Source of the DNA: Heterodontus francisci
Lineage: Eukaryota
Direction of reading: 5' to 3'
NCBI RefSeq assembly: GCF_036365525.1
Contig: NC_090399.1
Location: 42,502,430-42,566,429, forward strand
DNA length: 64,000 bases
The notes under the pieces: model-generated
Databases searched by the model: none
What the model saw: only the letters and a program-made list of their open reading frames with translations
What the model was told of the DNA's origin: nothing
In this document: positions 3,001 through 64,000 of the stretch, piece by piece
How positions within the stretch are numbered: position 1 is the first letter of the stretch
How the letters are laid out: each line of letters begins with the position of its first letter
Translations under genes and position numbers: made by a program

Positions 3001-6000
3001 AGGACATGAACCCCAAAACACCAACACAAGAGAGACATCAGGACATGAACCCCAAAACACCAACCCCACACAGAGAGGCATCAGGACATGAACCCCAAAA
3101 CACCAACACAAGAGAGACATCAGGACATGAACCCCAAAACACCAACACAAGAGAGACATCAGGACATGAACCCCAAAACACCAACCCCACGCAGAGAGGC
3201 ATCAGGACATGAACCCCAAAACACCAACCCCACACATCGAGACACATCAGGACATGAATCCCAAAACGCCAACCCCACATATCGAGACACATCAGGACAT
3301 GAACCCCAAAACACTAACCCCACACAGAGAGACACATCAGGACATGAACCCCAAAACACCAACCCCACACAGAGACACATCAGGGCATGAACCCCAAAAC
3401 ACCAACACGAGAGAGACATCAGGACATGAACCCCAAAACACCTACCCCACCAGAGAGACATCAGGATATGAACCCCAAAACACCAACCCCACAAAGAGAG
3501 ACACATCAGGACATGAACCCCAAAACACCAACCCCACCAGAGAGACATCAGGATATGAACCCCAAAACACCAACCCCACGCAGAGAGACATCAGGATATG
3601 AACCCCAAAACACCAACACCACTCGGAGACACATCAGGACATGAACCCCAAAACCCAAGCCCACAGAAAGACATCTGGACATGAACCCCAAAACACCAAC
3701 CCCACGCAGAGTCATCAGGACATGAACCCCAAAACACCAACCCCACACAGAGACACATCAGTTCATGAACCCCAAAACACCAACCCCACGGAAAGACATC
3801 AGGACGTGAACCCCAAAACACCAACACAAGAGAGACATCAGGACATGAAACCCAAAACGCCAACCACACACAGAGAGACACATCAGGACATGAACCCCAA
3901 AACACAAACACCACACAGAGAGACATCAGGATATGAACCCAAAACACCAACACTACAGAGAGAAAGACATCAGGACATGAACCCCAAAACACCAACACAA
4001 GAGAGACATCAGGACATGAACCCCAAAACACCAACACCGCACAGAGACACATCAGGACTTGAACCCCAAAACACCAACACAAGAGAAACATCAGGACATG
4101 AACCCAAAACACCAACCCCACACATCGAGACACATCAGGACATGAACCCCAAAACACCAACACAAGAGAGACATCAGGACATGAACCCCAAAACACCAAC
4201 CCCACACAGAGAGACATCAGGACATGAACCCCAAAACACCAACACAAGAGAGACATCAGGACATGAACCCCAAAACACCAACATAAGAGAGACATCAGGA
4301 CATGAACCCCAAAACACCAACACAAGAGAGACATCAGGACAAGAACCCCAAAACACCAACACAAGAGAGACATCAGGACATGAACCCCAAAACACCAACC
4401 CCACACAGAGAGACATCAGGACATGAACCCCAAAACACCAACACAAGAGAGACATCAGGACATGAACCCCAAAACACCAACCCCACGCAGAGAGGCATCA
4501 GGACATGAACCCCAAAACACCAACACAAGAGAGACATCAGGACATGAACCCCAAAACACCAACCCCACACAGAGAGGCATCAGGACATGAACCCCAAAAC
4601 ACCAACACAAGAGAGACATCAGGACATGAACCCCAAAACACCAACCCCACACAGAGAGGCATCAGGACATGAACCCCAAAACACCAACACAAGAGAGACA
4701 TCAGGACATGAACCCCAAAACACCAACACAAGAGAGACATCAGGACATGAACCCCAAAACACCAACCCCACACATCGAGACACATCAGGACATGAACCCC
4801 AAAACACCAACCCCACACAGAGACACATCAGGACATGAACCCCAAAACACCAACCCCACACAGAGACACATCAGGACATGAACCCCAAAACACCAACCCC
4901 ACACATCGAGACACATCAGGACATGAACCCCAAAACACCAACCCCGCACAGAGACACATCAGGACATGAACCCCAAAACACCAACCCCACACAGAGACAC
5001 ATCAGGACATGAACCCCAAAACACCAACACCGCACAGAGACACATCAGGACATGAACCCCAAAACACCAACACCGCACAGAGACACATCAGGACATGAAC
5101 CCCAAAACACCAACACAAGAGAGACATCAGGACATGAACCCCAAAACCCCAACCCCACACAGAGAGGCATCAGGACATGAACCCCAAAACACCAACACAA
5201 GAGACACATCAGGACATGAACCCCAAAACACCAACCCCACACAGAGACACATCAGGACATGAACCCCAAAACACCAACACCACACAGAGAGACATCAGGA
5301 TATGAACCCCAAAACACCAACCCCACACAGAGACACATCAGGACATGAACCCCAACACACCAACCCCACAGAGACACATCAGGATATGAACACCAAAACA
5401 CCAACCCCACACAGAGAGACATCAGTACATGAACCCCAAAACACCAACCCCACCCAGAGAGACATCAAGACATGAACCCCAAAACACCAACCCCACACAG
5501 AGACACATGAGGACATGAACCCCAAAACACCAACCCCACACAGAGAGAGACCTCAGGATATGAACCCCAACACACCAACATCGCACAGAGAGACATCAGG
5601 ATATGAACCCCAAAACACCAACCCCACCCAGAGACACATCAGGACATGAACCCCAAAACACCAACCCCACAGAAAAACATCAGGACGTGAACCCCAAATC
5701 ACCAACACCACACAGAGAAACATCAGGACATGAACCCCAAAACACCAACCCCACAGAGAGAAAGACATCAGGACATGAACCCCAAAACACCAACCCCACA
5801 GAAAAACATCAGGACGTGAACCCCAAAACACCAACCCCACAGAGAGAAAGACATCAGGACATGAACCCCAAAACACCAACACCACACATCGAGACACATC
5901 AGGACATGAACCCCAAAACACCAACCCCACAGAGAGACACATCAGGACATGAACCCCAAAACACTAACCCCACACAGAGAGACATCAGGACATGAACCCC

Positions 6001-9000
6001 AAAACACCAACCCCACACAGAGACACACATCAGGACATGAAACCCAAAACACCAACCCCACGGAGAGAGACATCAGGACATGAACCCCAAAACACCAACC
6101 CCACACAGAGAGACATCAGGACATGAACCCCAAAACACCAACCCCACACAGAGAGACATCAGGACATGAACCCCAAAACACCAACCCCACACAGAGAGAC
6201 ATCAGGACATGAACCCCAAAACACTAACCCCACACAGAGAGACATCAGGACATGAACCCCAAAACACTAACCCCACACAGAGAGACATCAGGACATGAAC
6301 CCCAAAACACCAACCCCACACAGAGAGACATCAGGACATGAACCCCAAAACACCAACCCCACACAGAGAGACATCAGGACATGAACCCCAAAACACTAAC
6401 CCCACACAGAGACACACATCAGGACATGAAACCCAAAACACTAACCCCACACAGAGAGACACATCAGGACATGAACCCCTAAACACCAACCCCACAGAGA
6501 GACACATCAGGACATGAACTCCAAAACACCAACCCCACACAGAGAGACATCAGGACATGAACCCCAAAACACCAACCCCACACAGAGAGACATCAGGATA
6601 TGAACCCAAAACACCAAGCCCACACAGAGACACATCAGGACATGAACCCCAAAACACCAACCCCAGATAGACACATCAGGACATGAACCCCAAAACACCA
6701 ACCCCACACAGAGACACATCAGGACATGAACCCCAAAACACCAACCCCACAGAAAAACATCAGGACATGAACCCCAAAACACCAACCCCACAGAGAGACA
6801 CATCAGGACATGAACCCCAAAACACCAACCCCAGATAGACACATCAGGACATGAACCCCAAAACACCAACCCCACAGAAAAACATCAGGACATGAACCCC
6901 AAAACACCAACCCCACAAAGAGAGACACATCAGGACATGAACCCCAAAACACCAACCCCACCAGAGAGACATCAGGATATGAACCTCAAAACACCAACAC
7001 CACTCGGAGACACATCAGGACATGAACCCCAAAACCCAAGCCCACAGAAAGACATCTGGACATGATGCCCAAAACACCAACCCCACGCAGAGTCATCAGG
7101 ACATGAACCCCAAAACACCAACCCCACGGAGAGACATCAGTTCATGAACCCCAAAACACCAACCCCACGGAAAGACATCAGGACATGAACCCCAAAACAC
7201 CAACACAAGAGAGACATCAGGACATGAACCCCAAAACACCAACCCCACACAGAGAGACATCAGGACATGAACCCCAAAACACCAAACCCACACAGAGAGA
7301 GACATCAGGACATGAACCCCAAAACACCAACCCCACACAGAGAAACATCAGGACATGAACCCCAAAACACCAACCCCACACAGAGAGAGACATCAGGACA
7401 TGAACCCCAAAACACCAACCCCACAGAAAGACATCAGGACGTGAACCCCAAAACACCAACATCTCACAGAGAAACATCAGGACGTGAACCCCAAAACACC
7501 AACCCCACACAGAGAAACATCAGGACATGAACCCCAAAACACCAACCCCACACAGAGAAACATCAGGACATGAACCCCAAAACACCAACCCCACACAGAG
7601 AGACATCAGGACATGAACCCCAAAACACCAACCCCACACAGAGAAACATCAGGACATGAACCCCAAAACACCAACCCCACACAGAGAAACATCAGGACAT
7701 GAACCCCAAAACACCAACCCCACACAGAGAGACATCAGGACATGAACCCCAAAACACTAACCCCACACAGAGAGACACATCAGGACGTGAACCCCAAAAC
7801 ACCAACATCACACATCGAGACACATCAGGACATGAACCCCAAAACACCAACCCCACACAGAGAAACATCAGGACATGAACCCCAAAACACCAACCCCACA
7901 CAGAGAAACATCAGGACATGAACCCCAAAACACCAACCCCACACAGAGAAACATCAGGACATGACTCCCAAAACACCAACCCCACACAGAGAAACATCAG
8001 GACATGAACCCCAAAACACCAACCCCACACAGAGAAACATCAGGACATGAACCCCAAAACACCAACCCCACACAGAGAAACATCAGGACATGAACCCCAA
8101 AACACCAACCCCACACAGAGAAACATCAGGACATGAACCCCAAAACACCAACCCCACACAGAGAGACATCAGGACATGAACCCCAAAACACCAACCCCAC
8201 ACATCGAGACACATCAGGACATGAATCCCAAAACGCCAACCCCACATATCGAGACACATCAGGACATGAACCCCAAAACACTAACCCCACACAGAGAGAC
8301 ACATCAGGACATGAACCCCAAAACACCAACCCCACACAGAGAGACATCAGGATATGAACCCCAAAACACCAACCCCACGCAGAGACACATCAGGGCATGA
8401 ACCCCAAAACACCAACACGAGAGAGACATCAGGACATGAACCCCAAAACACCAACCCCACCAGAGAGACATCAGGATATGAACCCCAAAACACCAACCCC
8501 ACAAAGAGAGACACATCAGGACATGAACCCCAAAACACCAACCCCACCAGAGAGACATCAGGATATGAACCCCAAAACACCAACCCCACGCAGAGAGACA
8601 TCAGGATATGAACCCCAAAACACCAACACCACTCGGAGACACATCAGGACATGAACCCCAAAACCCAACCCCACAGAAAGACATCTGGACATGAACCCCA
8701 AAACACCAACCCCACGCAGAGTCATCAGGACATGAACCCCAAAACACCAACCCCACACAGAGACACATCAGTTCATGAACCCCAAAACACCAACCCCACC
8801 AGAGAGACATCAGGATATGAACCCCAAAACACCAACCCCACGCAGAGACACATCAGGACATGAACCCCAAAACACCAACCCCACCAGAGAGACATCAGGA
8901 TATGAACCCCAAAACACCAACACCACTCGGAGACACATCAGGACATGAACCCCAAAACCCAACCCCACAGAAAGACATCTGGACATGAACCCCAAAACAC

Positions 9001-9830
9001 CAACCCCACACAGAGAGACACATCAGGACATGAACCCCAAAACACCAACCCCACACAGAGAGACATCAGGATATGAACCCCAAAACACCAACCCCACGCA
9101 GAGACACATCAGGACATGAACCCCAAAACACCAACACGAGAGAGACATCAGGACATGAACCCCAAAACACCAACCCCACCAGAGAGACATCAGGATATGA
9201 ACCCCAAAACACCAACACCACTCGGAGACACATCAGGACATGAACCCCAAAACCCAACCCCACAGAAAGACATCTGGACATGAACCCCAAAACACCAACC
9301 CCACACAGAGAGACACATCAGGACATGAACCCCAAAACACCAACCCCACAGAAAGACATCAGGACGTGAACCCCAAAACACCAACACCTCACAGAGAGAC
9401 ATCAGGACATGAACCCCAAAACACAAACCCCACACAGAGAGAGACATCAGGACATGAACCCCAAAACACAAACCCCACACAGAGAGAGACATCAGGACAT
9501 GAACGCCAAAACACCAACACCTCACAGAGAGACATCAGGACATGAACCCCAAAACACAAACCCCACACAGAGAGAGACATCAGGACATGAACCCCAAAAC
9601 ACAAACCCCACACAGAGAGAGACATCAGGACATGAACCCCAAAACACCAACACCTCACAGAGAGACATCAGGACATGAACCCCAAAACACCAAACCCACA
9701 CATAGAGAAAGACATCAAGACATGAAACCCAAAACACCAACCCCACACACACACACAGATATCAGGACATGAACCCCAAAATACCAACCCCAGAGAGAGA
9801 CAGCAGTACATGAACCCCCAAAAAAAGAAC
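1..9830. repeat. Satellite array, ~39-45 bp units (core CATCAGGACATGAACCCCAAAACACCAAC plus a variable 10-16 bp tail), running off the window start
   Basis: About 200+ tandem copies directly visible. All ORFs in 65-9877 are translations of the repeat. Higher-order block repeats are present (ORF 65..274 recurs at 891..1100, 826 bp apart). Confidence 0.98.
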
Positions 9831-10199
9831 CAAACAGAGAGAAAGAGGCACTGATATCCCACAACCTCCCTTCCCAACCCCTGACAATGCTCTAAAAGCC
9901 TGTGATCTCCCAGATCTCACACTGAATTCCAATCAGGGACTCTGTGAACTCATGTCTCACCCGTTCTTCCTCCAGTCCCCCCACAATCTAACCCGATTTG
10001 TTACCTGGAACTTGCTGCACTCACCTTTCATTACATTAAAGGCGCTATATAAATATAAGTTGTTGTTGTAATCTGTGCGCCCTGCTCCTGTAGCACCATC
10101 TACTGTACGGTGAGGTCTCTGGAGCTCCTCAGAGCTCAACATTTGAGTGTGGACTGTTAACACTGTGTGAGGTGGGGGAGCTCCTGAATTTAACCCAGA

Positions 10200-13521: not shown

Positions 13522-14445
13522 AGGCCCCAGTACCCAGTCTAGCACAGCCCCGATCACACCCCATTACTCACTGATCGAGGGTTAATGCCCCAGTACCCAG
13601 CCTGGCACTGTCCCTCTCACACCCATTACTCACTGACCGAAGGTTAATGCCCCAGTACCCAGCCTGGCACTGTCCCTCTCACACCCATTACTCACTGACC
13701 GAGGGTTAATGCCCCAGTACCCAGCCTGGCACTGTCCCTCTCACACCCATTACTCACTGACCGAGGGTTAATGCCCCAGTACCCAGCCTGGCACTGTCCC
13801 TTTCACACCCCATTACTCACTGACCGAGAGTTAATGGCCCAGTACCCAGTCTGGCACTGTCCCTCTCACAACCCATTACTCACTGACCGAGGGTTAATGG
13901 CCCAGTACCCAGTCTGGCACTGTCCCTCTCACACCCCATTACTCACTGACCGAGGGTTAATGCCCCAGTACCCAGTCTGGCACTGTCCCTCTCACAACCC
14001 ATTACTCACTGACCGAGGGTTAATGGCCCAGTACCCAGTCTGGCACTGTCCCTCTCACAACCCATTACTCACTGACCGAGGGTTAATGGCCCAGTACCCA
14101 GTCTGGCACTGTCCCTTTCACACCCCATTACTCACTGACCGAAGGTAAATGCCCCAGTACCCAGTCTAGCACTGTCCCTCTCACAACCCATTACTCACTG
14201 ATCGAGGGTTAATGCCCCAGTACCCAGTCTGGCACTGTCCCTCTCACACCCCATTACTCACTGACCGAGGATTAATGCCCCAGTACCCAGCCTGGCACTG
14301 TCCCTCTCACAACTCATTACTCCCTGATCGAGGGTTAATGCCCCAGTACCCAGTCTGGAACTGTCCCTCTCACACCCCATTACTCACTGACCGAGGATTA
14401 ATGCCCCAGTACCCAGTCTAGCACTGTCCCTCTCACACCCCATTA
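13522..14445. repeat. 63-bp minisatellite, left half
   Basis: Unit GAGGGTTAATGCCCCAGTACCCAGTCTGGCACTGTCCCTCTCACACCCCATTACTCACTGACC; 21-aa periodic ORFs. Confidence 0.97.
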
Positions 14446-17400
14446 AGAACATAAGAAATAGGAGCAGGAGTAGGCCATTCAGCCCCTCAAGCCTACCCTG
14501 CCAATCAATAAGATCATGGCTGATCGGCCCCAGACCTCAACTCCTCTTTCGTGCCAGCTCCTCTTAGCCCTCAACTCCCCAATATTTCAAAAATCTATCT
14601 ACCTCCTCTTTAAATACTTTCAGTGATCTAGCCTCCACAACTTTCTGGGCGAGAGAATTCCAGACATTCACTACCCTGAGAGAAGAAATTCCTTCGCATC
14701 TCAGTTTTAAATGAGTGTCCCCTTATTCTGTAACTATGTCCCCTAGTTTGAGATTCCCCCACTAGTGGAAACATCTTCTCAACATCTACCCTGTCAAGCC
14801 CCCTCAGTATCTCGTACCTTTCAATAAGATCACCCCTCATTCTTCCAAACTCTAATGAAAAAAGGCCTAACCTGTTTAGCCGTTCTTGATAAGTCAACCC
14901 CTTCATCCCAGGAATCAGTCTAGTGAATCTCTTTTGAACTGCCTCCAATGCCAGTATATCCTTTCTTAAATATGGGGACCAAAACTGTACGCAGTACTCC
15001 AGGTGCGACCTCACCAACACCCTGTACAGTTGTAACAAGATTTCCCTGTTTTTAAACTCTAACCCCCGAGCAATAAAGGCCAAAATTCCATTTGCCTTCT
15101 TAATTACTTGCTGCACCTGCATGCTAACTTTGTGTTTCATGCACAAGAACACCCAGATCCCTCTGTGCTGAACTTTATTGAAGTCTTTCTCCATTTAAAT
15201 AATAGTCTGCCTTTTGATCTCACACTTCCCCACATTAAACTCCATCTGTCAAGTTTTTGCCCATTCACTCAACCTATCTATATCCCCTTTCAGATTCCTT
15301 ATGTCCTCATCACAATGTGCCCTCCCACCTATTTTTGTATCAGCAGCAAATTTGGATACATTACACTCTGCTCCCTCCTCCATGTCATTAATATAAATAA
15401 ATAATTGAGTCCCCAAGCCTGATCCTTGTGGCACTCCACTAGTTATGTATTTCTAACCTGAAAAAGACCCATTAATCCCGAATCTGTCGTCTGTGAGTTA
15501 ACCAATCCTCAATCTATGCTGATACATTACCCACAATACCGTGAGCTCCTATCTTGTGCAATAATCTTTTATGTGGCACCTTATCAAATGCCTTCTGGAA
15601 ATCTAAATACACTCCATCTACTGGTTCCTGTTTATCAACTCTGCTTGTTATAACCTCAAAAGAATTCTCGCAAATTTGTCAAACATGATTTCCCTTTCAT
15701 AAAACCATGTTGACTCTGTTTGATTGCATTAAGCTTTTCTAAACATCCTGTTATTTCTTCCTTAATAATGGACTCCAGCATTTTCCCAATGACCGATGTT
15801 AAACTGACTGGCCTATAGTTTCTTGCTTTTTGTTTCCCTCCCTTCTTGAACAGGGGCATCACATTAGTGGTTTTCCAATCTGCTGGGACAATCCCGGAAT
15901 CCAGTGAGTTCCGGAATATTTCGACCAATGCCTCCATTATCTCTGCAGCCACTTCCTTTAAAACCCTTGGATGTCGGCCATCAGGTCCTAGTGACTTGTT
16001 TGCCTTTAGTCCCATTAGTTTGTCAAATACTTTGTCACTCGTGATAGAGACTGTTACAAGATCTTTCCTCCCATTAGCTCCTTGCTTATCTGATATCTGT
16101 GGGATGTTTATAGTGTCCTCCGCCGTGAAGACCGATGCAATATATTGGTTTAAATTATCTGCCATTTCCCTGTTCCCCGTTGTCAATTCTCCAGTCGCAT
16201 CCTCCAAGGGTCCCACGCTCACTTTAGCTACTCTCTTTTTTATATACCCATAGAAGCTCTTGCTGTTTGTTTTTATATTTCTTGCCAATTTACTTTCATA
16301 ATCAGTTGTCTCCTTCTTTATTAGCTTTTTAGTCATCCGCTGCTAGTTCCCAAAAAATTCCCAATCCTCTGGCCTACCATTAGTTTTTGCCGCTTTGTAT
16401 GCCTTAGTTTTTGATTGGATACTCTCCTTGACCGCCTTTGTTAACCACGGGTAGTTCTTCCTTCTCATCGAGTCCTGCTTTTTGACTGGGATAAATTTTT
16501 GCTGAGCATTATGAAATATCTGCTGAAATGTCTGCCACTGCTCATCCACTGACCTTCCCTTTGGACTATTTTCCCAGCCTGCTTGAGACAACTCTTTCTT
16601 CATACCTCCGTAATTGCCCTTGTTTAAGTTGAAGACACTGGTTTGTGACCCGAGTTGCTCGCCCTCAAACTGAATTTGAAATTCTACCATGTTGTGATTG
16701 CTACCCCCTCGAGGATCCTTAACTACCATATCTCTTATTAATCCTACCTCATTACACATTACTAGATCGAAAATAGCCTGTTCCCTGGTAGGTTCTGCAA
16801 TGGATTGTTCTAAGTAACAATCCCTGATGCACTCTACAAATTCGTCTTCCATGTTACCTCTGCCAATCAATATGCAGATTAAAATCACCCATGACAATTG
16901 TAGTGCCCTTCTTACATGCCTCCATTATTTCCTGATTTATATTTTGTCTGACAATGAGGCAACTCTTCGGGGGGCCTATAGACGACAGCCACCCGTGACC
17001 TCTTCCCCTTGCTATTCCTGATTTCAACCCAAACTGATTCCACATCACGATCTATTGCACCTATATCACTACTCACCACTGCACTGATACCTTACTTTAT
17101 TAACAAAGCTACCCCACCTCCTTTTCCTTTTTGCCTATTTTTCTGGAACACCCTTGAATATTGAGTTCCCAGTCTTTGTCACCCTGCAACCACGTCTCTG
17201 TAATAGCTATCAAATCATATTCATTTATTTCGATATGTGCCATCAACTCATCTATCTTGTTACAAATGCTGTGTGCATTCAGATAAAGAGCTTTAAGCTT
17301 TGACTTTTTACCATTATTACTCATTCTGGTTCTAATTTCTGCTAAACTCTTCTGCTTATATTTTCTGCCCCTTCCTGTCACACTTAGATTACCGTTCGCC

Positions 17401-17490
17401 TCTTCACTACCCTGGAACTCTGCTCTCTCGTTTCTTTCAGATTTTTTAAACTTCCCTTCAATTGAACCCTCCCCCCAACTAATTAGTTTA
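14446..17490 (-). mobile_element. CR1 LINE, near-complete ORF2 (APE endonuclease and RT) with frameshifts, inserted into the 63-bp minisatellite
   Basis: Motifs YLNAHSICNK..IAITETWL, VMGDFN, NYRPVSLTS..QHGFMKGKSCLTN, PQGS, KFAADTK, HLEYCVQFWSP. The 3' tail abuts CCCCATTA and the 5' end resumes with CTCACTGACC. Confidence 0.95.
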
Positions 17491-18562
17491 CTCACTGACC
17501 GAGGGTTAATGCCCCAGTACCCAGTCTGGCACTGTCCCTCTCACACCCCATTACTCACTGACCGAGGGTTAATGCCCCAGTACCCAGTTTGGCACTGTCT
17601 CTCTCACACGCCATTACTCACTGACTGAGGGTTAATGCCCCAATACCCAGTCTGGCACTGTCCCTCTCACAACCCATTACTCACTGACTGAGGGTTAATG
17701 CCCCAATACCCAGTCTGGCACTGCCCCTCTCACACCCCATTACTCACTGACCGAGGGTTAATGCCCCAGTACCCAGTCTGGCACTGTCCCTCTCACACCC
17801 CATTACTCACTGACCGAGGGTTAATGCCCCAATACCCAGTCTGGCACTGCCCCTCTCACACCCCATTACTCACTGACTGAGGGTTAATGCCCCAGTACCC
17901 AGTCTGGCACTGTCCCTCTCACACCCCATTACTCACTGACTGAGGGTTAATGCCCCAGTACCCAGTCTGGCACTGTCCCTCTCACACCCCATTACTCACT
18001 GACCGAGGGTTAATGCCCCAGTACCCAGTTTGGCACTGTCTCTCTCACAACCCATTACTCACTGACTGAGGGTTAATGCCCCAATACCCAGTCTGGCACT
18101 GTCCCTCTCACACCCCATTACTCACTGACCGAGGGTTAATGCCCCAATACCCAGTCTGGCACTGTCCCTCTCACACCCCATTACTCACTGACTGAGGGTT
18201 AATGCCCCAATACCCAGTCTGGCACTGTCCCTCTCACAACCCATTACTCACTGACTGAGGGTTAATGCCCCAATACCCAGTCTGGCACTGCCCCTCTCAC
18301 ACCCCATTACTCACTGACTGAGGGTTAATGCCCCAGTACCCAGTCTGGCACTGTCCCTCTCACACCCCATTACTCACTGACCGAGGGTTAATGCCCCAAT
18401 ACCCAGTCTGGCACTGCCCCTCTCACACCCCATTACTCACTGACTGAGGGTTAATGCCCCAGTACCCAGTCTGGCACTGTCCCTCTCACACCCCATTACT
18501 CACTGAGGGTTAATGCCCCAATACCCAGTTTGGCACTGTCCCTCTCACACTCCATTACTCAC
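17491..18562. repeat. 63-bp minisatellite, right half
   Basis: Same unit as 13522-14445. Confidence 0.97.
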
Positions 18563-18949
18563 CTGCAGAGACCCCTCCACACAGAAGGACCAGCACTATC
18601 AGTCCAATCATTGTTGCTTCCCTCGACAAGCTGAAAGGAGCAGTTTGTGGGAAATCCTTTTCCAAAAAACCTTTGCTTCTCAGTCTGTGAGCTGTGTCCT
18701 GTACTGATGATATTAAACTCTGTTCCAGTTTCCTCAGACTGATTGGTTTGACATAAGTTAATGTCCAATCAGAATTAAAACAAACTATGAATCATCAGGC
18801 TCCAGGCGGAATAGTTTCAGACAGTTTGATTCGGGGATCCCCAACAAACTTAACAAATATCGTGAACTATCCAAATCAGAGAAATACTGATAGTTACATC
18901 ACCAGTTGTCAGGGAGGATAAACGTTTGCTACAAAAAGTGAGAAGATTA

Positions 18950-24513: not shown

Positions 24514-25063
24514 CTTCTCCTTCTTCTTCTTCTTTGGCCTCCTTGTGTTGGGAGACAATGGGTAAGCGCCTGGAGGTGGTCAGTGGTTTGTGGAGCAGCG
24601 CCTGGAGTGGCTATAAAGGCCAATTCTAGAGTGACAGACTCTTCCACAGGTGCTGCAGATAAAATTGGTTGACGGGGCTGTTACACAGTTGGTTCTCTCC
24701 TTGCGCTTCTGTCTTTTTTCCTGCCAACTGCTAAGTCTCTTCGACTCGTCACACTTTAGCCCCGCCTTTATGGCTGCCCGCCAGCTCTGGCGATCTCAAA
24801 CAACTGACTCCCACGACTTGTGATCAATGTCACAGGACTTCATGTCGCGTTTGCAGATGTCTTTAAAGCGGAGACATGGACGGCCGGTGGGTCTGATACC
24901 AGTGGCGAGCTCGCTGTACGATGTGTCCTTGGGTATTCTGCCATCTTCCATGCGGCTCACATGGCCAAGCCATCTCAAGCGCCGCTGACTCAGTAGTGTG
25001 TATACGCTGGGGATGTTGGCCGTCTCGAGGACTTCTGTGTTGGAGATACGGTCCTGCCACCTG
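24514..25063 (-). mobile_element. 5'-truncated young RTE LINE with a 9-bp TSD
   Basis: Highly similar to the 3' end of the intact RTE at 30847-31390. (GAA)n tail. ATAAACCAT at 24505-24513 and 25064-25072. Confidence 0.92.
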
Positions 25064-30846: not shown

Positions 30847-33800
30847 TTCTTCTTTTGGGCCTCCTTATCTCGAGAGACAATGGATACGCGCCTGGAGGTG
30901 GTCAGTGGTTTGTGAAGCAGCGCCTGGAGTGGCTATAAAGGCCAATTCTGGAGTGACAGGCTCTTCCACAGGTGCTGCAGAGAAATTTGTTTGTTGGGGC
31001 TGTTGCACAGTTGGCTCTCCCCTTGCGCCTCTGTCTTTTTTCCTGCCAACTACTAAGTCTCTTCGACTCGCCACAATTTAGCCCTGTCTTTATGGCTGCC
31101 CGCCAGCTCTGGCGAATGCTGGCAACTGACTCCCACGACTTGTGATCAATGTCACACGATTTCATGTCGCGTTTGCAGACGTCTTTATAACGGAGACATG
31201 GACGGCCGGTGGGTCTGATACCAGTGGCGAGCTCGCTGTACAATGTGTCTTTGGGGATCCTGCCATCTTCCATGCGGCTCACATGGCCAAGCCATCTCAA
31301 GCGCCGCTGACTCAGTAGTGTGTATAAGCTGGGGATGTTGGCCGCTTCAAGGACTTCTGTGTTGGAGATATAGTCCTGCCACCTGATGCCAAGTATTCTC
31401 CGAAGGCAGCGAAGATGGAATGAATTGAGACGTCGCTCTTGGCTGGCATACGTTGTCCAGGCCTCGCTGCCGTAGAGCAAGGTACTGAGGACACAGGCCT
31501 GATACACTCGGACTTTTGTGTTCCGTGTCAGTGCGCCATTTTCCCACACTCTCTTGGCCAGTCTGGACATAGCAGTGGAAGCCTTACCCATGCGCTTGTT
31601 GATTTCTGCATCTAGAGACAGGTTACTGGTGATAGTTGAGCCTAGGTAGGTGAACTCTTGAACCACTTCCAGAGCGTGGTCGCCAATATTGATGGATGGA
31701 GCATTTCTGACATCCTGCCCCATGATGTTCGTTTTCTTGAGGCTGATGGTTAGGCCAAATTCATTGCAGGCAGACGCAAACCTGTCGATGAGACTCTGCA
31801 GGCATTCTTCAGTGTGAGATGTTAAAGCAGCATCGTCAGCAAAGAGGAGTTCTCTGATGAGGACTTTCCGTACTTTGGACTTCGCTCTTAGACGGGCAAG
31901 GTTGAACAACCTGCCCCCTGATCTTGTGTGGAGGAAAATTCCTTCTTCAGAGGATTTGAACGCATGTGAAAGCAGCAGGGAGAAGAAAATCCCAAAAAGT
32001 GTGGGTGCGAGAACACAGCCCTGTTTCACACCACTCAGGATAGGAAAGGGCTCTGATGAGGAGCCACCATGTTGAATTGTGCCTTTCATATTGTCATGGA
32101 ATGAGGTGATGATACTTAGTAGCTTTGGTGGACATCCGATCTTTTCTAGTAGTCTGAAGAGACCACGTCTGCTGACGAGGTCAAAGGCTTTGGTGAGATC
32201 AATGAAAGCAATGTAGAGGGGCATCTGTTGTTCACGGCATTTCTCCTGTATCTGACGAAGGGAGAACAGCATGTCAATAGTCGATCTCTCTGCACGAAAG
32301 CCACACTGTGCCTCAGGGTAGACGCGCTCGGCCAGCTTCTGGAGCCTGTTCAGAGCGACTCGAGCAAAGACTTTCCCCACTATGCTGAGCAGGGAGATTC
32401 CACGGTAGTTGTTGCAGTCACCGCGGTCACCTTTGTTTTTATAGAGGGTGATGATGTTGGCATCGCGCATGTCCTGGGGTACTGCTCCCTCATCCCAGCA
32501 CAGGCATAGCAGTTCATGTAATGCTGAGAGTATAGCAGGCTTGGCACTCTTGATTATTTCAGGGGTAATGCTGTCCTTCCCAGGGGCTTTTCCGCTGGCT
32601 AGGGAATCAATGGCATCACTGAGTTCCGATTTGGTTGGCTGTATGTCCAGCTCATCCATGACTGGTAGAGGCTGGGCTGCATTGAGGGCAGTCTCAGTGA
32701 CAGCATTCTCCCTGGAGTACAGTTCTAGGTAGTGCTCAACCCAGCGGTCCATCTGTTTGCATTGGTCAGTGATTATGTCCCCCGATTTAGATTTGAGGGG
32801 GGTGATCTTCTTGATGGTTGGCCCAAGAGCTCTCTTCATGCCATCATACATTCCTCTGATGTTTCCGGTGTCTGAGGCCAGCTGAATATGACTGCATAGG
32901 TGTTGCCAGTAGTCGTTTGCGCAACGCCTAGCTGTTCTTTGTGCAGTACTTCTGGCTGCTTTAAGTGCTGCGGATGTTAAATCGCTGGGGGCTTTCTTGT
33001 AGTTCAAAAGTGCAATGCGCTTAGCGGCTATGACAGGTTCCAGCTCTTCATTATGAGATTGAAACCAGTCTGCATTTCTCTTCGCACTTTTGCCGTAGGT
33101 GGTCAAAGCTGACTCATAGATGGCGTCTCTGATGTGGGCCCACTTGGTCTCAGCATCCCCTGTGGGAGTGTTTGGAAGGGCTGTTACAAGTGAATTTAGA
33201 AATTTTTGTAACAGCTGTGGGTGAGAAATTCTGCTCGTGTTGATGCGCGGGTGGCCCTTCTGCTTGGAATGATGCAACTTCTTTGGTCTGAGTCTAACCT
33301 TGCTGCACACCAGGGAGTGGTCGGTGTCGCAGTCCGCACTGTGGAAGCTGCGTGTGATTTGAACACTGTTTAAGGAGGCTCGCCTTGTGACAATGAGGTC
33401 TAGCTGGTGCCAACGACGTGATCTTGGGTGCCTCCATGAAACCTGGTGACAGGGTTTAGTGTGAAAGAACGAGTTGGTGATGCAGAGGTTATGATAGGTA
33501 CACAACTCAAGCAGTCTCTGCCCGTTCTCATTCATCCTTCCAACGCCATAGCGCCCAAGGCAGGAGGGCCATGAGTCATGGTCGGCCCCAACCCTGGCAT
33601 TAAAGTCCCCCAGCAGGAATAGGTGTTCGGTGTTGGGGATGCTGCTAATGATGTTATGGAGTTGTTCATAGAACTGGTCTTTAGCTTCAGGTGCGGAACA
33701 GAGTGTTGGAGCATAGATGCTGAGTAGGTGTACTGGACCAGAGGTGGTGAGCAGTCGGATGGACAGTATGCGTTCCGAGCCATTTGAGGGAGGCTCTATC

Positions 33801-34620
33801 ATGCTGAGCAAGGAGTTTCTGATGGCGAAGCCCACTCCATGCTGTCTTGGTTCTTCAGGATCCCTGCCCTGCCAGAAGAAGGTGTAGTCTTGCTCTGCTA
33901 GAGAGCCACTCGCGGGGAGGCGAGTCTCCTGAAGTGCTGCAATGTCCACATTGAGTCTACTGAGCTCGTTGTTAATGATGGCGGTCTTCCGAGAATCGTT
34001 GATTTGTGTAAGGTCTTCCGACAGGCCAGGACACATAGTTCTGACGTTCCAGCTTGCAAAACGAAGGGCTGGTACCTTCTTTCCTTTTTTCATGTTGTTT
34101 GGTGCGGTGTATCAGTCCACCTTTCGGGCAATGACCCTGAGCTCCAAGCACCCATTGAAGCAGGCAGACTGTGGCGGGACAGAACCTTATTGACCGGGGG
34201 CTGCCCGGTTTGAGGCGGGCGGTAGCTGTCCAGTGAGGTGCAATGACCTCTCCCACCGACAAAGGCAACCCGTGGCGCCCAGTTTCTACGCCAATTTATC
34301 TGGACTTATAACCCGTAACTGCTGCCTTCCGTGTTGTTTCAGTCGCTGTGAGGCAACTATGGAGTGACCTCTCCATGGCGCATGCCTGGGCAAATTTATG
34401 GAGGTTGAGAGTTGCCCAGTCGTCAAAACCCCCCTCTCGGCCTTTCTGGTGGGGTCCAAAGGAGTGCAGGACACGACGTTTGGCACCAGTATGGCTGCAG
34501 GAACTGCCGGAAACATGCCAAAGGTGACACATGACCGCCTACGGGGTTCCGCTCCGGATTTTCTGTTAGGGTTTACTCCCTTAGCCTTGGTCTCTCCCGA
34601 GACGCCCACAAGGCAGTGGG
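30847..34620 (-). mobile_element. Full-length RTE-clade LINE with intact ORF
   Basis: (GAA)-type 3' tail, one 1063-aa ORF and ~500 bp of 5' UTR. The 5' boundary is uncertain. Confidence 0.93.
30902..34093 (-). CDS. RTE LINE polyprotein: APE endonuclease, reverse transcriptase and C-terminal zinc finger (1063 aa)
   Basis: SWNVRT, LQETR, LLGDFNA, DCDTDH, NYRGISLL, FIDLTKAFD, GVKQGCVLAP, LLFADD, YLGS, CSTCGRACHSRIGLYSH; no stops. Confidence 0.96.
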   Translation of the reverse strand: MKKGKKVPALRFASWNVRTMCPGLSEDLTQINDSRKTAIINNELSRLNVDIAALQETRLPASGSLAEQDYTFFWQGRDPEEPRQHGVGFAIRNSLLSMIEPPSNGSERILSIRLLTTSGPVHLLSIYAPTLCSAPEAKDQFYEQLHNIISSIPNTEHLFLLGDFNARVGADHDSWPSCLGRYGVGRMNENGQRLLELCTYHNLCITNSFFHTKPCHQVSWRHPRSRRWHQLDLIVTRRASLNSVQITRSFHSADCDTDHSLVCSKVRLRPKKLHHSKQKGHPRINTSRISHPQLLQKFLNSLVTALPNTPTGDAETKWAHIRDAIYESALTTYGKSAKRNADWFQSHNEELEPVIAAKRIALLNYKKAPSDLTSAALKAARSTAQRTARRCANDYWQHLCSHIQLASDTGNIRGMYDGMKRALGPTIKKITPLKSKSGDIITDQCKQMDRWVEHYLELYSRENAVTETALNAAQPLPVMDELDIQPTKSELSDAIDSLASGKAPGKDSITPEIIKSAKPAILSALHELLCLCWDEGAVPQDMRDANIITLYKNKGDRGDCNNYRGISLLSIVGKVFARVALNRLQKLAERVYPEAQCGFRAERSTIDMLFSLRQIQEKCREQQMPLYIAFIDLTKAFDLVSRRGLFRLLEKIGCPPKLLSIITSFHDNMKGTIQHGGSSSEPFPILSGVKQGCVLAPTLFGIFFSLLLSHAFKSSEEGIFLHTRSGGRLFNLARLRAKSKVRKVLIRELLFADDAALTSHTEECLQSLIDRFASACNEFGLTISLKKTNIMGQDVRNAPSINIGDHALEVVQEFTYLGSTITSNLSLDAEINKRMGKASTAMSRLAKRVWENGALTRNTKVRVYQACVLSTLLYGSEAWTTYASQERRLNSFHLRCLRRILGIRWQDYISNTEVLEAANIPSLYTLLSQRRLRWLGHVSRMEDGRIPKDTLYSELATGIRPTGRPCLRYKDVCKRDMKSCDIDHKSWESVASIRQSWRAAIKTGLNCGESKRLSSWQEKRQRRKGRANCATAPTNKFLCSTCGRACHSRIGLYSHSRRCFTNH

Positions 34621-36228: not shown

Positions 36229-36663
36229 ATACTGACCCTCCGACAGTGCAGCGCTCCCTCACTACTGACCCTCCGACAGTGCAGCGCTCCCTCACTACTG
36301 ACCCTCCGACAGTGCAGCGCTCCCTCACTACTGACCCTACGACAGTGCTGCTCTCCCTCAGTACTGACCCTCCAACAGTGCAGCGCTCTCTCAATACTGA
36401 CCCTCCGACAGTGGAACGCTCCCTCAGTACTGACCCTCCTACAGTGCAGCACTCCATCAGTAGTGACCCTCTGACAGTGCTGCTCTCCCTCAGTACTGAC
36501 CCTCCGACAGTGCAGCGCTCCCTCAGTACTGACCCTCCGACAGTGCAGCGCTCCCTCAGTACTGCCCCTCCGACAGTGCAGCGCTCCCTCGGTACTGATC
36601 CTCCGACAATGCAGCTCTTCGTCAGTACTGACCCTCTGACAGTGCAGCACTCCCTCAGTACTG
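36229..36663. repeat. 33-bp minisatellite (CAGTACTGACCCTCCGACAGTGCAGCGCTCCCT), probably DeuSINE-derived
   Basis: 11-aa periodic ORFs. The unit matches CAGTGCAGCGCTCCCTCAGT in the SINE-like relic near 56880. Confidence 0.9.
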
Positions 36664-36665
36664 CC

Positions 36666-37055
36666 TGTAATGAGGTCTTTTTATGTTGTCTGATGCAAAT
36701 TTAATGAGATGCGTGGAGTCCAGGTTGTTGAAGAGCTCCACTAGACGCTATATAATGGAATCTAAATACTGCAGATGCTGGAATCTGAAATAGGAAACAA
36801 ATTGCTGGAAATACTTAGCAGGTCTGGTAGCATCTGTGGAGAGAGGTGCTGAGTTAACGTTTCAGGTCTGTGACCTTTCATCAGCTTATTACTGCTAACT
36901 TATTATACAGTACAGAACTCACTATTTACAGAACTTGCCTCTACTTGTTACAGCAGCAGTGAGACGAGCATGTAGTCACATGACTACATCCTGGCACTTA
37001 GCTCATGAGCATACCAAGATCTTAAAAGGACACTCTTAAAGACAATCACACAGCA
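36666..37055 (-). repeat. 3' LTR of the myc-bearing element, interrupted by a Penelope terminal fragment at ~36755-36885
   Basis: Starts with TG immediately after the PPT and ends ..CATTACA next to the minisatellite. Confidence 0.7.
36852..36885 (-). ncRNA. Minimal hammerhead ribozyme core (Penelope pseudo-LTR)
   Basis: Reverse complement CTGATGA-A-AGGTC aca GACCT-GAAA-CGTT-AACT; canonical core, with the 5' arm of stem I truncated. Confidence 0.65.
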
Positions 37056-37199
37056 TCCCCTTCTTTCCAAAGTCTCGTGTGCTAGAATGAAAAAAAAAGA
37101 AACACTAGATAGCATCAAAATTAGTATATAGAAGGATCGAGAAAAATTTACAAGTATACAGCCGCACAAGTCTATGTTTCGTTTTGGTGATTTGACAAC

Positions 37200-37695
37200 T
37201 CTTGCTCGGAGAATGTGTGTCTCGGGTGTTGAGTTTCTTAATGAAGTTTCTCCATCTCTGCATTCAGTTTCTGATGCTCTGCCTTCAGCCTGCTGACGTA
37301 CTCTGTTGCTTTATTCAAGATCACCACTTTTGAGGCCTTGTCAATCTTGGAGAGTTCCGGCACCTCATCTTGAAGATCTAACAGACAATGCTTCAACTCA
37401 TTCCTCCTCTGCCTCTTGAGGGCATTGTGTGTCCTTCACCTCTCCTCATCCTCTGTGTCTGAAGCTTCAGGCTTAAGGTTGAGGAGCAGTTGAGGGAGGA
37501 GTACTTGGTCTTATGGAGATACCTGCCCGCTCTGGCTTGTTGTGGTACTGTAAGTTCTCTAGAGAGCAAAAGTGAAGGCACGGCATAGTTGTGCTATTGC
37601 TGGGTTTCCAGACTGCACCATTTGATGCTGGTCAGTCTGTGAGCGGGTTCCGGTCCTTGGAGATTTCCCCTTGGTCTCTTCTGCTGTAATGGTTA
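37200..37695 (-). pseudogene. myc: Transduced Myc-family C-terminal fragment (Myc box IV and bHLH-LZ), decayed
   Basis: Manual translation gives IKWCSLETQQ*HNYAVPS (HNY at 37585-37593). After a frameshift it reads [76 protein letters not shown]. Compare c-Myc [56 protein letters not shown]. Confidence 0.93.
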
Positions 37696-37699
37696 CCTT

Positions 37700-38017
37700 A
37701 GTGACCTCATGGATGGTTATAATGTTGAGGTCCTTATACATTGGTAGTCCAACCTCTGCTTGCCTGCTCGTGTTAACTAGGTAGAACATTTGTGGTTCCA
37801 TGCTGACTTGGCATAGCTGCATTGCATTGTTAGTGTGATACTGCAAGGGAATGGATGACCTGTTGTATGCAGATAACCTGGCAGTTGTCAGTTGTATCAT
37901 TGATTTCCAGTGACTCCAGAACATATCTTTCATGATTCGGACTGGTAGTATATTTGCACGAGCTTCGGTGTCAATCTTGACCCAGAGTGTATGTTTGTCA
38001 GCTTTCTTTGGGCACAT
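37700..38017 (-). pseudogene. Retroelement aspartic protease (decayed)
   Basis: VKIDTEARANILP is the DTG(A) motif with G to E. LSAYN..IP and FYLV..GLP follow. Confidence 0.8.
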
Positions 38018-38259
38018 GATGTTAAATGGAGCAAAAGTTGTTTGACTTCATCAACATGATGTGTTAGGTTCACAATGTGGAACGCTTTCTCATCTTCTGT
38101 TTGAGAACGTCTTCTCTCAGAGTCTGGTCTCAGGTTTGTTTTGCTGTGGACTTCGTGTATCAGCTTGCATTTACTCAAGACTTTGGCATGTTCCTTGCTG
38201 CTGTTGCCCTGTTTTCTGTTTGCTTGTGTTCTACCGTGACTTCTGGCTGTGTCTCTGGA

Positions 38260-38959
38260 GCCAGAATTATTGCATAGGTGTACCCAGTGTCCTTTTGCTA
38301 CACGCCTTGCACAGGTCTCAAAATGCAGGACAACTTCACCATGAATAGGACCAACCACACTTACCACACAGCTTGTTTGCTCTTTTCAACCTGGTTATTG
38401 GTCTGATACTGTTGGCTACAGCTAGTGCTTGCAGGTCCTGTTGTTCAGCTACAATGGCTTCATATTTCCTGCCATCTTGCAGCAGTGCATCAATTCTGTG
38501 ACCTTTCTTTTTCCCGATGAGGTCTTTCTGAAATGCTTCAATGGGTATTCATATGAGCATCAGCTCCATTATTCGGTCAGACAGCTCAGTTTCTGAGAAG
38601 TCGCATTTATTGCCCTTACTACGGCATCTACTAATGAACTGGTCTATTGATTCCTGTGGCTGTTGCCTGTAGGATATCAATTCCAGGTGGTGAATTTGAA
38701 AATTCACTCTTAATCGGAGTTGATCATCCAGCACCATCCATATCTTTGCGGGATATTTCTGGTCCTCTTCAGGTAAGCCAGAGTTATTGATTCTGTGTAA
38801 TCCATCAGTTCTGACTGTTAGAAGCATTTTTACAGCCTGTTTTTCTGGTACTACAATTATTTGGTCTTTAAAGCCTAATGACATTCCTTTTTGGAACAGT
38901 TTGAATTCTGATAGGATACCCAGGTCTTTCCAGTTTGTGCTGCAAAATTTGGTATCCAT
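38260..38959 (-). pseudogene. Gypsy-type gag with CCHC knuckle (decayed)
   Basis: ORF 38549..38959 plus a downstream Cys/His cluster. Confidence 0.8.
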
Positions 38960-39004
38960 AGTTCTACTGCTGTTTTGCTTTAAGACAAGCTTCTATGATT
39001 CTGT

Positions 39005-39429
39005 CAGCAGGTCTGGCAGCATCTGTGGAAAGAGAAGCAGAGTTAACGTTTCGGGTCAGTGACCCTTCTTCGGAACTGACAAATATTAGAAAAGTTGTTC
39101 AATATTCAGTGTATTTACACCTAATCTGTACTAATGCTTTGTCTTTCAACACACCATTAACATATTGTTTGCCTTTGCTCCGTGACCTTTTGGTCAGCTA
39201 TGTGGCCTGGTCCAATCTGCACCTTCTCCTTTGTTATCTCTTGCCCCACCCCCACCTCACTTGCTTATAATCTGTGACTTTTCTAATATTTGTCAGTTCC
39301 GAAGAAGGGTCACTGACCCGAAACGTTAACACTGCTTCTCTTTCCACAGATGCTGCCAGACCTGCTGAGTGATTCCAGCATTTCTTGTTTTTGTTTCAGA
39401 TTTCCAGCATCCGCAGTATTTTGCTTTTA
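39005..39429. mobile_element. Young Penelope terminal insertion with an inverted repeat and ~14-bp TSD
   Basis: 39005-39095 is the reverse complement of ~39277-39368. TTCTAYGATTCTGT occurs at 38991-39004 and 39430-39443. Hammerhead motifs lie at 39041-39080 (-) and 39294-39334 (+). Confidence 0.85.
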
Positions 39430-41156
39430 TTCTACGATTCTGTACTGCTTTCCTTTAAAAAAAAGTCTTGGCTGCTTTGATTGACAGGAGCAGGCGTTTA
39501 GCAGTGCTTGTCTGTTTATGTAGCTTCTGGCACTCTATTCTGTCTGTTGAAGAACATTTGTTGCTTTTAAATGAACTTTTTGATTTATTGCAGAAAGTGG
39601 GATTGAAGGTGAACCTGAAAAAGACTCAGTTGGTGCAGAGTGAAGTCACCTCCTTGAGGGTAAAAATCTCTGCTCCAGGACTCAGTCCGGATCAGTATAA
39701 GGTCAAAGTTATTCCGAGACTCCCATTGCTTGTATCGATGACGGCATTGCCATCCTTTTTGGGATTGGTAGGATATCGGAGAAGTTTTATCCTGAACTTT
39801 GCAGATTTGGCCGAGCCACTGTATGAATTATTGAAAGGTGATGAGGAAGATATTCGGCCAGCATGGGGGTGATAGTCACACAGAATCAGTGAATGTCTGA
39901 AAACAGGCAACAATGCAGACTACTGCCCTTATCACCCCAGACTCCAGCAGGCCTTTCCATCTGGAAGTTGGTTCAAACCCTTCCAGCCTGACAGCAGTTT
40001 TAAGTCAGCAACAGCAGATAGACGCACGTTGTGCCCTGTATTTTGAGAGAGGCAGGAAATATGTACTCAGCCTGTGAACGTCACCTTCTGGGCAGTCAAT
40101 CACTTTACTTACATCACCGGACCACAGAAAGTGATTTTATATTCATCGCACATGCTCCTTAATCTTCTATTAAAACCAAGTGATACGAAGGTGTCTTCTC
40201 AATGGATCATCAAATAGACACTTGAGTTACTGCAGCGAGACTTGGACATCACCCCCACATGAACAACTCTTTTTGCCCTGATGCTTGTGTACGAGCGAAG
40301 TCCACACCAGTGTCTATTACCTGTGTTGGAGATGGAATTAAACCCGGTAAAAGCCTGCACTATTCTGGAGGCCCGAAATGTGTACTTGTACGGCTCGTCC
40401 TATTACACTGACGGCCACCCCAAAACCGGGTGTGTCATAGTTGACATGGACACTCCTGATTGGACAATGGGAGTCCAAGTTCCTGTCCATTCATCTCAAC
40501 AATCAGAGCTGATAGCTGTCATCCTCACCGTCCACTATACAGCATCAAAAGCAACTAATATTGGGTCTGATAGTGGTTACGTCTGCAATGCAGTTATGGT
40601 CTTACCCCTGTACCATAAAAATGATTGTTGTTTATCTGATGGTAAATCTTTATTACATTCTGGTCTCCTCTGTAAGCTATGGGAAGTGCTCCGGGAACGA
40701 GTCACCCTCTGTCATTAGGAAAGGTAACAGCCCATCGGAAATAGTTGGGACAAGGGATCAAATTTGGGAAGATGTGGTAAATCAAGGCAAGAGAGAAAGG
40801 GATTAATATGGGAAATGATAATCTGACTATGACAGGAAAGATTCATCACCAAACACCCAGGGTAACAATACAGCCGACTGACTTGCTCCAGAATCCGCAG
40901 AGAATGGATTCCCAGTCCCAGGGTAGGTGATGGATAAATCCAGATCCCAGGCACCTGTTGTAGCTGTTGTTACGAAAATAAAAACCATCAATTTGACAGA
41001 ACTCCAAACTTTGTTCACTCCATTTGCTCAGGTTATAGAATGGCACAAACAGGGGTGTCCAGTATCACAGCCCCCCTGGTGGGCAAACTCCACAGTGATT
41101 CAACACCATGATAAAGAAAGCCCCTCCCTATTAATGATTAAAATAAGGTTGATTCA

Positions 41157-63287: not shown

Positions 63288-64000
63288 CACCTGATGCCAA
63301 GGATTCTCCGGAGGCAGCGAAGATGGAATGAATTGAGACGTCGCTCTTGGCTGACATACGTTGTCCAGGCCTCGCCGCCGTAGAGCAAGTACTGAGGACA
63401 CAGGCTTGATACACGCGGACTTTTGTGTTCTGTGTCCGTGTGCCATTTTCCCACACTCTCTCTTGGCCAGTCTGGACATAGCAGTGGAAGCCTGTCCCAT
63501 GCGCTTGTGGCAGGACCGTATCTCCAACACAGAAGTCCTAGAGGCAGCCAACATCCCCAGCTTATAGACCCTACTGAGCCAGCGGCGCTTGAGATGGCTT
63601 GGCCATGTGAGCCGTGTGGAAGATGGCAGGATCCCCAAGGACACATTGTACAGCGAGCTCGCCACTGGTATCAGACCCACCGGCCGTCCATGTCTCCGCT
63701 TTAAAGACGTCTGCAAACGCGACATGAAGTCCTGTGACATTGATCACAATTCGTGGGAGTCAGTTGCCAGTGATCGCCAGAGCTGACGGGCAGCCATAAA
63801 GGCGGGGCTAAAGTGTGGCGAGTCGAAGAGACTTAGCAGTTGGCAGGAAAAAAGACAGAAGCGCAACGGGAGAGCCAACTGCGAAACAGTCCTGACAACC
63901 AATTTTATCTGCAGCACCTGTGGAAGAGCCTGTCACTCTAGAATTGGCCTTTATAGCCACTCCAGGCACTGCTCCACAAACCACTGACCACCTCCAGGTG
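63288..64000. mobile_element. RTE LINE 3' end with an inverted 5' segment (minus 63288-63507, plus 63508 to window end)
   Basis: The minus part encodes KRMGQAS..LRRILGIRW. The plus part begins WQDRISNTEV and runs to ..CSTNH*. Confidence 0.9.

Follow-up and report, generated by a model that had tools for sequence, protein, structure and literature searches.

The 64,000-nucleotide stretch of Heterodontus francisci DNA analysed here (the window) includes a single dead member of a Ty3/Gypsy LTR retrotransposon family, in which the reverse transcriptase (RT), RNase H and integrase regions have been replaced by part of a spliced host mych mRNA. The captured sequence lacks the transactivation domain, is fused in frame to gag and protease (PR), has been amplified in the genome and has lost E-box contacts. 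We put at about an even chance that the Myc part was a translated, frame-preserved but largely passive cargo of the element. Gene capture by LTR elements, as in maize Bs1, and myc capture by retroviruses are already known. Captured myc has previously come from tumour-causing infectious retroviruses; here an env-less retrotransposon in the germ line of a shark has taken up the little-studied mych and been amplified ~2,400-fold. A literature search covering titles and abstract openings brought up no description of a retrotransposon with a myc-family gene as its cargo.

Architecture of the copy in the window

On the minus strand of the window, a gag-like region is followed by a protease-like ORF and then by the C-terminus of Myc (Table 1). 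The gag comprises a capsid-like part and two Cys/His knuckles near 38370-38290. Pfam returned no protease or gag-capsid family on the element's ORFs, and zf-CCHC_3 matched a different copy (L079) at E = 0.0011, below the Pfam cut-off. The protease motif of the window copy is DTE, with its Asp at ~37972, a residue retained in 62 of 73 copies. The captured piece comprises the box IV region, a basic-rich linker, the bHLH (from 37438) and the zipper, with Myc-derived DNA continuing past the zipper stop to ~37212. Positions 37241-37435 match Pfam HLH (E = 4.8e-12) and, as best PDB match, human Myc (E = 1.9e-16), with Lys at the Glu position of the basic region. A polypurine tract (37056-37068) directly precedes the LTR. 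The 5′ LTR and primer-binding site are missing from this copy, which has no LTR pair. We infer that the later insertion between leader and gag is SINE-like.

Table 1. Features of the Myc-bearing element copy, in window coordinates
Feature	Position	Strand	Basis
3′ LTR, partial, ~170 of ~255 bp	36886..37055	-	aligns to LTR of copy L068; LTR pairs in other copies
Integrase tail and 3′ UTR remnant	37056..37211	-	aligns to parent tail
Captured host mych exon-3 piece	37212..37674	-	86% identity to host exon 3; junction in phase; tree
Private zipper stop TAA	37238..37240	-	1/38 copies
Basic region: stop 37436-38, His site 37429, Glu site 37417 (= Lys)	37415..37438	-	
Out-of-frame segment between two indels, with box IV stop 37594-96	37465..37636	-	alignment to host exon
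Aspartic protease region and linker, in ORF 37559-38047	37668..38047	-	aligns to parent PR-RT ORF
Gag, broken by stops	38048..38992	-	translation; same frame as PR in window copy
Later insertion, common short repeat	39005..39430	.	other copies without insert here; matches many unrelated loci; inverted repeat I6
5′ leader remnant	39430..39548	-	contiguous with 39004 in other copies

The preliminary description of this sequence had placed the bHLH codon at 37438 in the frame of the protease ORF, which translation of the minus strand confirms, and box IV in another. Alignment to the host exon indeed puts the box IV region (codon 37596) out of that frame, between two indels, -2 at ~37636 and -1 at ~37465 (net -3). 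These are private to the window copy, being found in 1 of 88 and 0 of 90 other copies, respectively. The two stops described earlier, TGA at 37436-38 and TAG at 37594-96, are both present, and to these we add the TAA in the zipper. Two of the three are rare among copies, TAG occurring in 3 of 55; TGA, at a CpG hot spot, occurs in 13 of 52.

The insertion lies within a segmentally duplicated region (G000:C29, 35.2-42.9 Mb, L001-L008). One duplicate ~393 kb away is 100% identical and six are 91-92% identical; four fetched with flanking sequence share the window's flanks. A 33-bp tandem array is common to the duplicated segments. Within the window, tandem arrays with periods of ~43, 63 and 33 bp occupy 1-10000, 13620-14550, 17360-18600 and 36230-36690. 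A separate, degraded retroelement lies on the opposite strand (39544-~44700, plus), directly against the 5′ end of the Myc-bearing copy. It retains RT, RNase H and integrase pieces; the ~2.5 kb that follow consist of broken frames and look env-like by eye, and the element is possibly an endogenous retrovirus. An apparently intact LINE ORF of 1,069 aa (30902-34111, minus), which we take to be RTE-like, has endonuclease and RT motifs, and related pieces lie at 24569-25060 and 63507-63998.

Donor gene, capture and the element family

As donor we identify the host gene at G000:C16:100.02 Mb: the translations of its two exons correspond to a Heterodontus francisci protein that its source names 'myelocytomatosis oncogene homolog'. 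In an exon-3 protein tree of 22 sequences, none of them MYCL, three element copies join host mych (98/95) within the mych of cartilaginous fishes and separate from MYC and MYCN. The tree and the identity of the host gene led us to reject MYC and MYCL as donors. Three Myc paralogues (MYC, MYCN and mych) were found in the genome, and no MYCL locus. Mych has been described as a distinct member of the Myc family (PMC2323570).

All 39 copies of the first set fetched match exon 3 and, in addition, some of the final ~190 nt of host exon 2. The earlier observation that only the region of the last myc exon is present holds for the subfamily of the window copy, not for the family. The 1.7-kb mych intron is absent and exons 2 and 3 are joined in phase in 37 of 38 scored copies, which identifies the source as a spliced mRNA; the same join rules out capture of intron-containing genomic DNA. 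The capture begins ~16 codons past box II, where the parent's RT start and exon 2 share a 7-nt identity; its other end falls within the final heptad of the zipper, where the integrase tail has a similar patch. Gene capture in LTR elements has been ascribed to abnormal template switching during reverse transcription (PMC13317346), and the microhomology at both capture points would fit such a process. Pfam Myc_N matched 118 of 119 scored places, with its N-terminal part at three loci only. When the N-terminal parts of mych and of MYC served as queries, 2 of 23 and 4 of 51 candidates matched, every one of them at the three host genes. Therefore, no copy found has boxes I and II, the hallmark of a transforming Myc, and the absence of MBI and MBII reported for the window extends to the family.

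The family is large. An 801-bp PR-Myc stretch matches 40 of 40 scored places at 80-100% identity (4,299 candidates in the 6.0-Gb genome), and an exact 18-mer from the zipper occurs 1,083 times, against 0 for its reversed control, so that the resemblance of the window copy to Myc is not due to chance. As this 18-mer is present in 25 of 56 sampled copies, we estimate ~2,400 copies, a figure that is probably low because the sample favours well-preserved copies. Counts below refer to 96 independent copies, L031-L034 having been dropped as segmental duplicates sharing the window's flanks. Every copy sample required Myc sequence; for a coordinate-ordered sample, 60 copies were picked among zipper 18-mer matches and 40 used.

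Several features mark the family as Ty3/Gypsy LTR retrotransposons. The LTRs are ~255 bp long with TG...CA ends (25 pairs, median 85.5% alike, range 75-92.5), a 5-bp target-site duplication is clear in at least 3 of 14 copies inspected, and a primer-binding site complementary to the 3′ end of host tRNA-Leu(TAG) accompanies the polypurine tract. Elsewhere in the genome (G000:C34:18.73-19.00 Mb), a tandem array with a period of ~3,050 bp contains the tRNA-Leu 3′ motif ~80 times, one unit being confirmed as tRNA-Leu(TAG). The Myc-bearing copies share their LTR and gag-PR with the parent, a Gypsy family with full pol; pieces of the parent match RVT_1, RT_RNaseH and rve (the last just under the cut-off). 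An earlier search for longer PR-RT relatives found none among 118 candidates; a later one recovered single-ORF Gypsy polyproteins with the order PR-RT-RNaseH-IN, the best being a sea-urchin protein (46%). The tail shared by parent and Myc-bearing copies gave 7,357 first-look candidates, and 28 of 30 integrase-tail loci fetched are without Myc. With its single frame and two Cys/His knuckles, the element may belong to a Mag-like lineage.

Of their own pol, Myc-bearing copies keep ~40 codons of the RT start (in the original junction class, A) and the integrase tail, and are not autonomous. In both the parent and the Myc-bearing copies the integrase tail runs into the polypurine tract and LTR with no env between them, setting the element apart from a retrovirus. 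None of 93 copies is open from the gag knuckle to the bHLH, and all sampled copies are now dead. We leave the family undated: at the epaulette-shark pedigree rate of 7e-10 per generation (PMC10587355), its 7-9% divergence would require an implausible ~1e8 generations.

Reading frame, selection and E-box contacts

Four 5′ junction classes were distinguished: A is the original, and B, C and D each represent a separate deletion. The window copy belongs to class C, with its junction at 37668-37674 (~6 nt overlap), and class D is the commonest (22 of 40 in the coordinate-ordered sample). Myc lies in the gag-protease frame in 21/27 class A, 9/11 class B, 16/17 class C and 18/19 class D copies (96 copies, 6 unscored), and at 7 of 16 one-off junctions. 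For comparison, random 6-nt matches between the same coding sequences are in phase in 232 of 591 cases overall (39%) and in 18 of 33 locally, so that four of four would be in phase by chance with a probability of ~2% or, against the local background, ~9%. Natural copies are open across each join: gag knuckle-PR-Myc in L050 and L100, PR-RT start-Myc in L071 and L091, and Myc-integrase tail in L058. These copies and the four in-phase classes bear out the proposal that the ancestor had an in-frame Gag-PR-Myc(bHLHZ) polyprotein without a transactivation domain.

Three of four post-zipper tail deletions also keep the integrase frame (10/11, 3/4 and 4/4), indicating that frame-keeping is not specific to Myc; in the commonest tail deletion it is not kept and the frame ends shortly after the zipper. 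The PR-RT linker, in which a putative protease cut might lie, is missing from class D, and the exon-2 piece and box IIIb are progressively lost in classes C and D. At host exon-3 codons 72, 76, 79 and 140, class A has non-host letters and class D mostly those of today's host, a contrast that could reflect later re-recombination with mych mRNA.

Within subfamilies, dN/dS of the Myc part is 0.79-0.93, the pattern of post-insertion decay, which serves as a neutral baseline. The net between-subfamily value is 0.85 [0.33-3.29], a comparison of low power, and that of the HLH-zipper alone 0.54 [0.08-9.37]. Corresponding values are 0.30 [0.12-0.67] for protease, 0.32 [0.17-0.63] for the gag N-part and 0.49 [0.18-1.11] for the gag knuckle. 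Purifying selection was thus not detected between subfamilies on the Myc part, and is seen on protease and gag. The preliminary description had held that neutral evolution of Myc beside a conserved gag would speak against its polyprotein reading, and the values for Myc, protease and gag partly show this pattern. Net dS of gag and protease is ~5 times that of Myc, which suggests exchange by recombination with older parent lineages; given such exchange, the purifying signal on gag and protease need not originate in Myc-bearing masters.

About nine subfamily-level amino-acid changes, absent or nearly absent from the mych of six other cartilaginous fishes, accompany ~5 segregating synonymous changes. 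Seven of the ~9 fall at positions invariant in those six (71 of 146 positions are invariant). The 13 hydrophobic core positions of the HLH-zipper carry no subfamily-level change, which is not significant, and core residues are mostly retained in individual copies.

The Glu-to-Lys change noted earlier in the basic region is present in the window copy and is not private to it: Lys occupies this site in 75 of 90 copies, which rules out private damage. Glu is found in 8 of 90, all of the oldest structure (8 of 21 class A copies, 0 of 60 in the later classes A4, B, C and D), and an intact HNxxER in the family is not supported. In class A, most copies (17 of 21) have His at the His site; later classes show a mix of His, Arg and Cys there, which may represent an Arg codon decayed at CpG. 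The Arg base contact is mostly kept, leaving the His-Glu-Arg set of E-box contacts incomplete. In human Myc, the His and Glu residues make base contacts, and the H359A/E363A protein is reported to bind Max, to lose E-box recognition and to slow growth when over-expressed (bioRxiv 10.1101/2020.05.04.076190). From the family-wide Glu-to-Lys change, the spreading forms would appear to have lost E-box specificity. Two of the ~9 subfamily changes fall on the three base-contacting codons (p ~0.01, in a test chosen post hoc).

Explanations for the captured Myc and related systems

We propose that a single-ORF Ty3/Gypsy element co-packaged host mych mRNA and that two template switches at short microhomologies during reverse transcription, a mechanism suggested by the structure we observe, swapped RT-RNaseH-integrase for mych from just past box II to the zipper end. 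The non-autonomous product would have kept its LTRs, tRNA-Leu primer site, polypurine tract, gag and protease, probably borrowing RT and integrase from its full-length parent as helper. It would have been translated as Gag-PR-Mych(box IIIb/IV-bHLHZ)-tail. In the lineages that amplified, the frame would have stayed open as far as a stop close to the 3′ LTR, the simplest reasons being stability of the RNA or packaging coupled to translation. The Myc amino acids would meanwhile have drifted about neutrally. E-box specificity would have gone early, Glu changing to Lys and later His as well, by drift or because an E-box-blind by-product costs the germ cell less.

Such a passive cargo, to which we assign about half of the probability, is favoured by the spliced join, the microhomology at the capture points, a parent with RT-RNaseH-integrase and the same LTR, and a Myc dN/dS like the neutral baseline. 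We also count for it the changes at invariant positions, the loss of exon 2 and box IIIb, the in-frame tail deletions and the lack, among 93 copies, of any open from gag knuckle to bHLH. Against it stand the in-phase junctions of all four classes, the untouched HLH-zipper core and the changes on base-contacting codons; the Myc confidence interval is also wide, and the purifying signal on gag and protease may stem from recombination. A selected Max sponge is a possibility that we hold at about half the weight of passive cargo. Here a Mych bHLH-zipper lacking transactivation and blind to the E-box, either freed by the protease or still joined to it, would tie up Max and shift germ-cell Myc/Max output or Max-dependent repression in the element's favour, in the manner of Omomyc or Myc-HEA. 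Besides the frame kept at four of four junction classes, the bHLH-zipper was retained through deletions that removed the integrase tail, the RT start, box IIIb and the exon-2 piece, although this retention is partly ascertainment, as every sample required Myc sequence. The later, commoner classes have basic residues at both base-contacting sites, and human H359A/E363A Myc is described as binding Max without E-box recognition (bioRxiv 10.1101/2020.05.04.076190). The HLH-zipper dN/dS has a point estimate of 0.54, yet its interval spans 0.08-9.37, the PR-RT linker is gone in class D, and the amino-acid changes do not avoid invariant residues. It is doubtful, if conceivable, that the retrotransposon held only the Max-dimerisation module in frame across four independent rearrangements and that selection acted to remove both of its E-box contacts. 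If true, this would be a natural transposon-encoded Max sponge acting on the germ-cell Myc/Max network, a mirror image of retroviral oncogene capture.

The loss of E-box contacts may instead, with rather lower probability, reflect detoxification, the fusion being an unavoidable and harmful by-product without positive Myc function, so that masters losing E-box recognition and box IIIb were favoured. The confinement of Glu to class A, the mix at the His site and the changes at invariant residues all fit; deleting Myc, or placing a stop behind the protease, would be simpler, though, and no such amplified class was seen in samples that are blind to Myc-free ones. We consider it quite unlikely that the captured sequence works at the RNA level, sequence of a needed host gene blunting small-RNA silencing of the element with the protein irrelevant. 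Such camouflage has been described as an idea for plant elements (PMC13317346) and would suit a family of thousands of copies, but it leaves frame-keeping unexplained, and the Myc-less parent is also abundant, as its first-look candidates and mostly Myc-free fetched loci attest.

Least probable is a host-domesticated family of truncated Myc genes working today. Five NCBI models named 'N-myc' or 'myc proto-oncogene protein-like' (XP_067875998.1, XP_067884620.1, XP_067907334.1, XP_067892408.1 and XP_067893611.1) are element copies carrying PR/RT-start pieces fused to mych, and contigs of four runs from three coded organisms, taken on a guess to be RNA, span every one of a copy's 30 bins. That RNA status is a guess, however, copy-to-copy dN/dS is about 0.8-0.9, LTR pairs are 75-92% alike, and the frame from gag to bHLH is open in none of 93 copies. 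Contigs of X5 (organism B) span the class D join with 117 nt on the shorter side, and those of X9 (organism A) with 38 nt; in X8 (organism C), with 28 nt, the bridge is weak. This suggests that the family predates the split of these organisms. Among the 120 protein matches listed of 397, fusion-type models come from one species only, other sharks showing mych only, within the limits of annotation.

The closest known systems are the v-myc retroviruses (avian MC29, with its gag-myc architecture, and MH2), in which a spliced myc-family mRNA likewise lies in frame with gag, pol is replaced and a helper is required. v-myc keeps Myc boxes I/II, whereas the shark element lacks them and has lost its E-box contacts; it further differs in its Ty3/Gypsy carrier, the absence of a visible env, its mych donor and its thousands of germ-line copies. 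Rodent s-myc and woodchuck N-myc2 are Myc retrogenes or processed pseudogenes, intron-less copies of myc-family mRNA. These are stand-alone retrocopies, in contrast to the shark Myc piece, which sits between LTRs in the gag-PR frame and moved with the element. MH2 is reported to carry v-myc (PMC13297096). Maize Bs1 and other gene-capturing LTR retrotransposons similarly hold host-gene segments (PMC13317346); the shark element differs in its vertebrate host and in its cargo, a transcription-factor domain of a proto-oncogene family that continues the frame of gag and protease in four junction classes. It resembles Omomyc in having a bHLH-zipper without a transactivation domain (PMC7780693) and Myc-HEA in the change of both base-contacting residues (bioRxiv 10.1101/2020.05.04.076190). 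Unlike those of these proteins engineered from c-Myc, its changes are natural and to basic residues.

The copies preserve the steps of a capture, from splicing and microhomology switches to in-frame deletions and loss of DNA-reading residues, and form a natural system in which to ask if a captured cargo comes under selection, is tolerated or is disarmed. The element also explains the five mis-annotated 'N-myc/myc-like' models, and will confound analysis of myc copy number or expression in the Heterodontus francisci genome.
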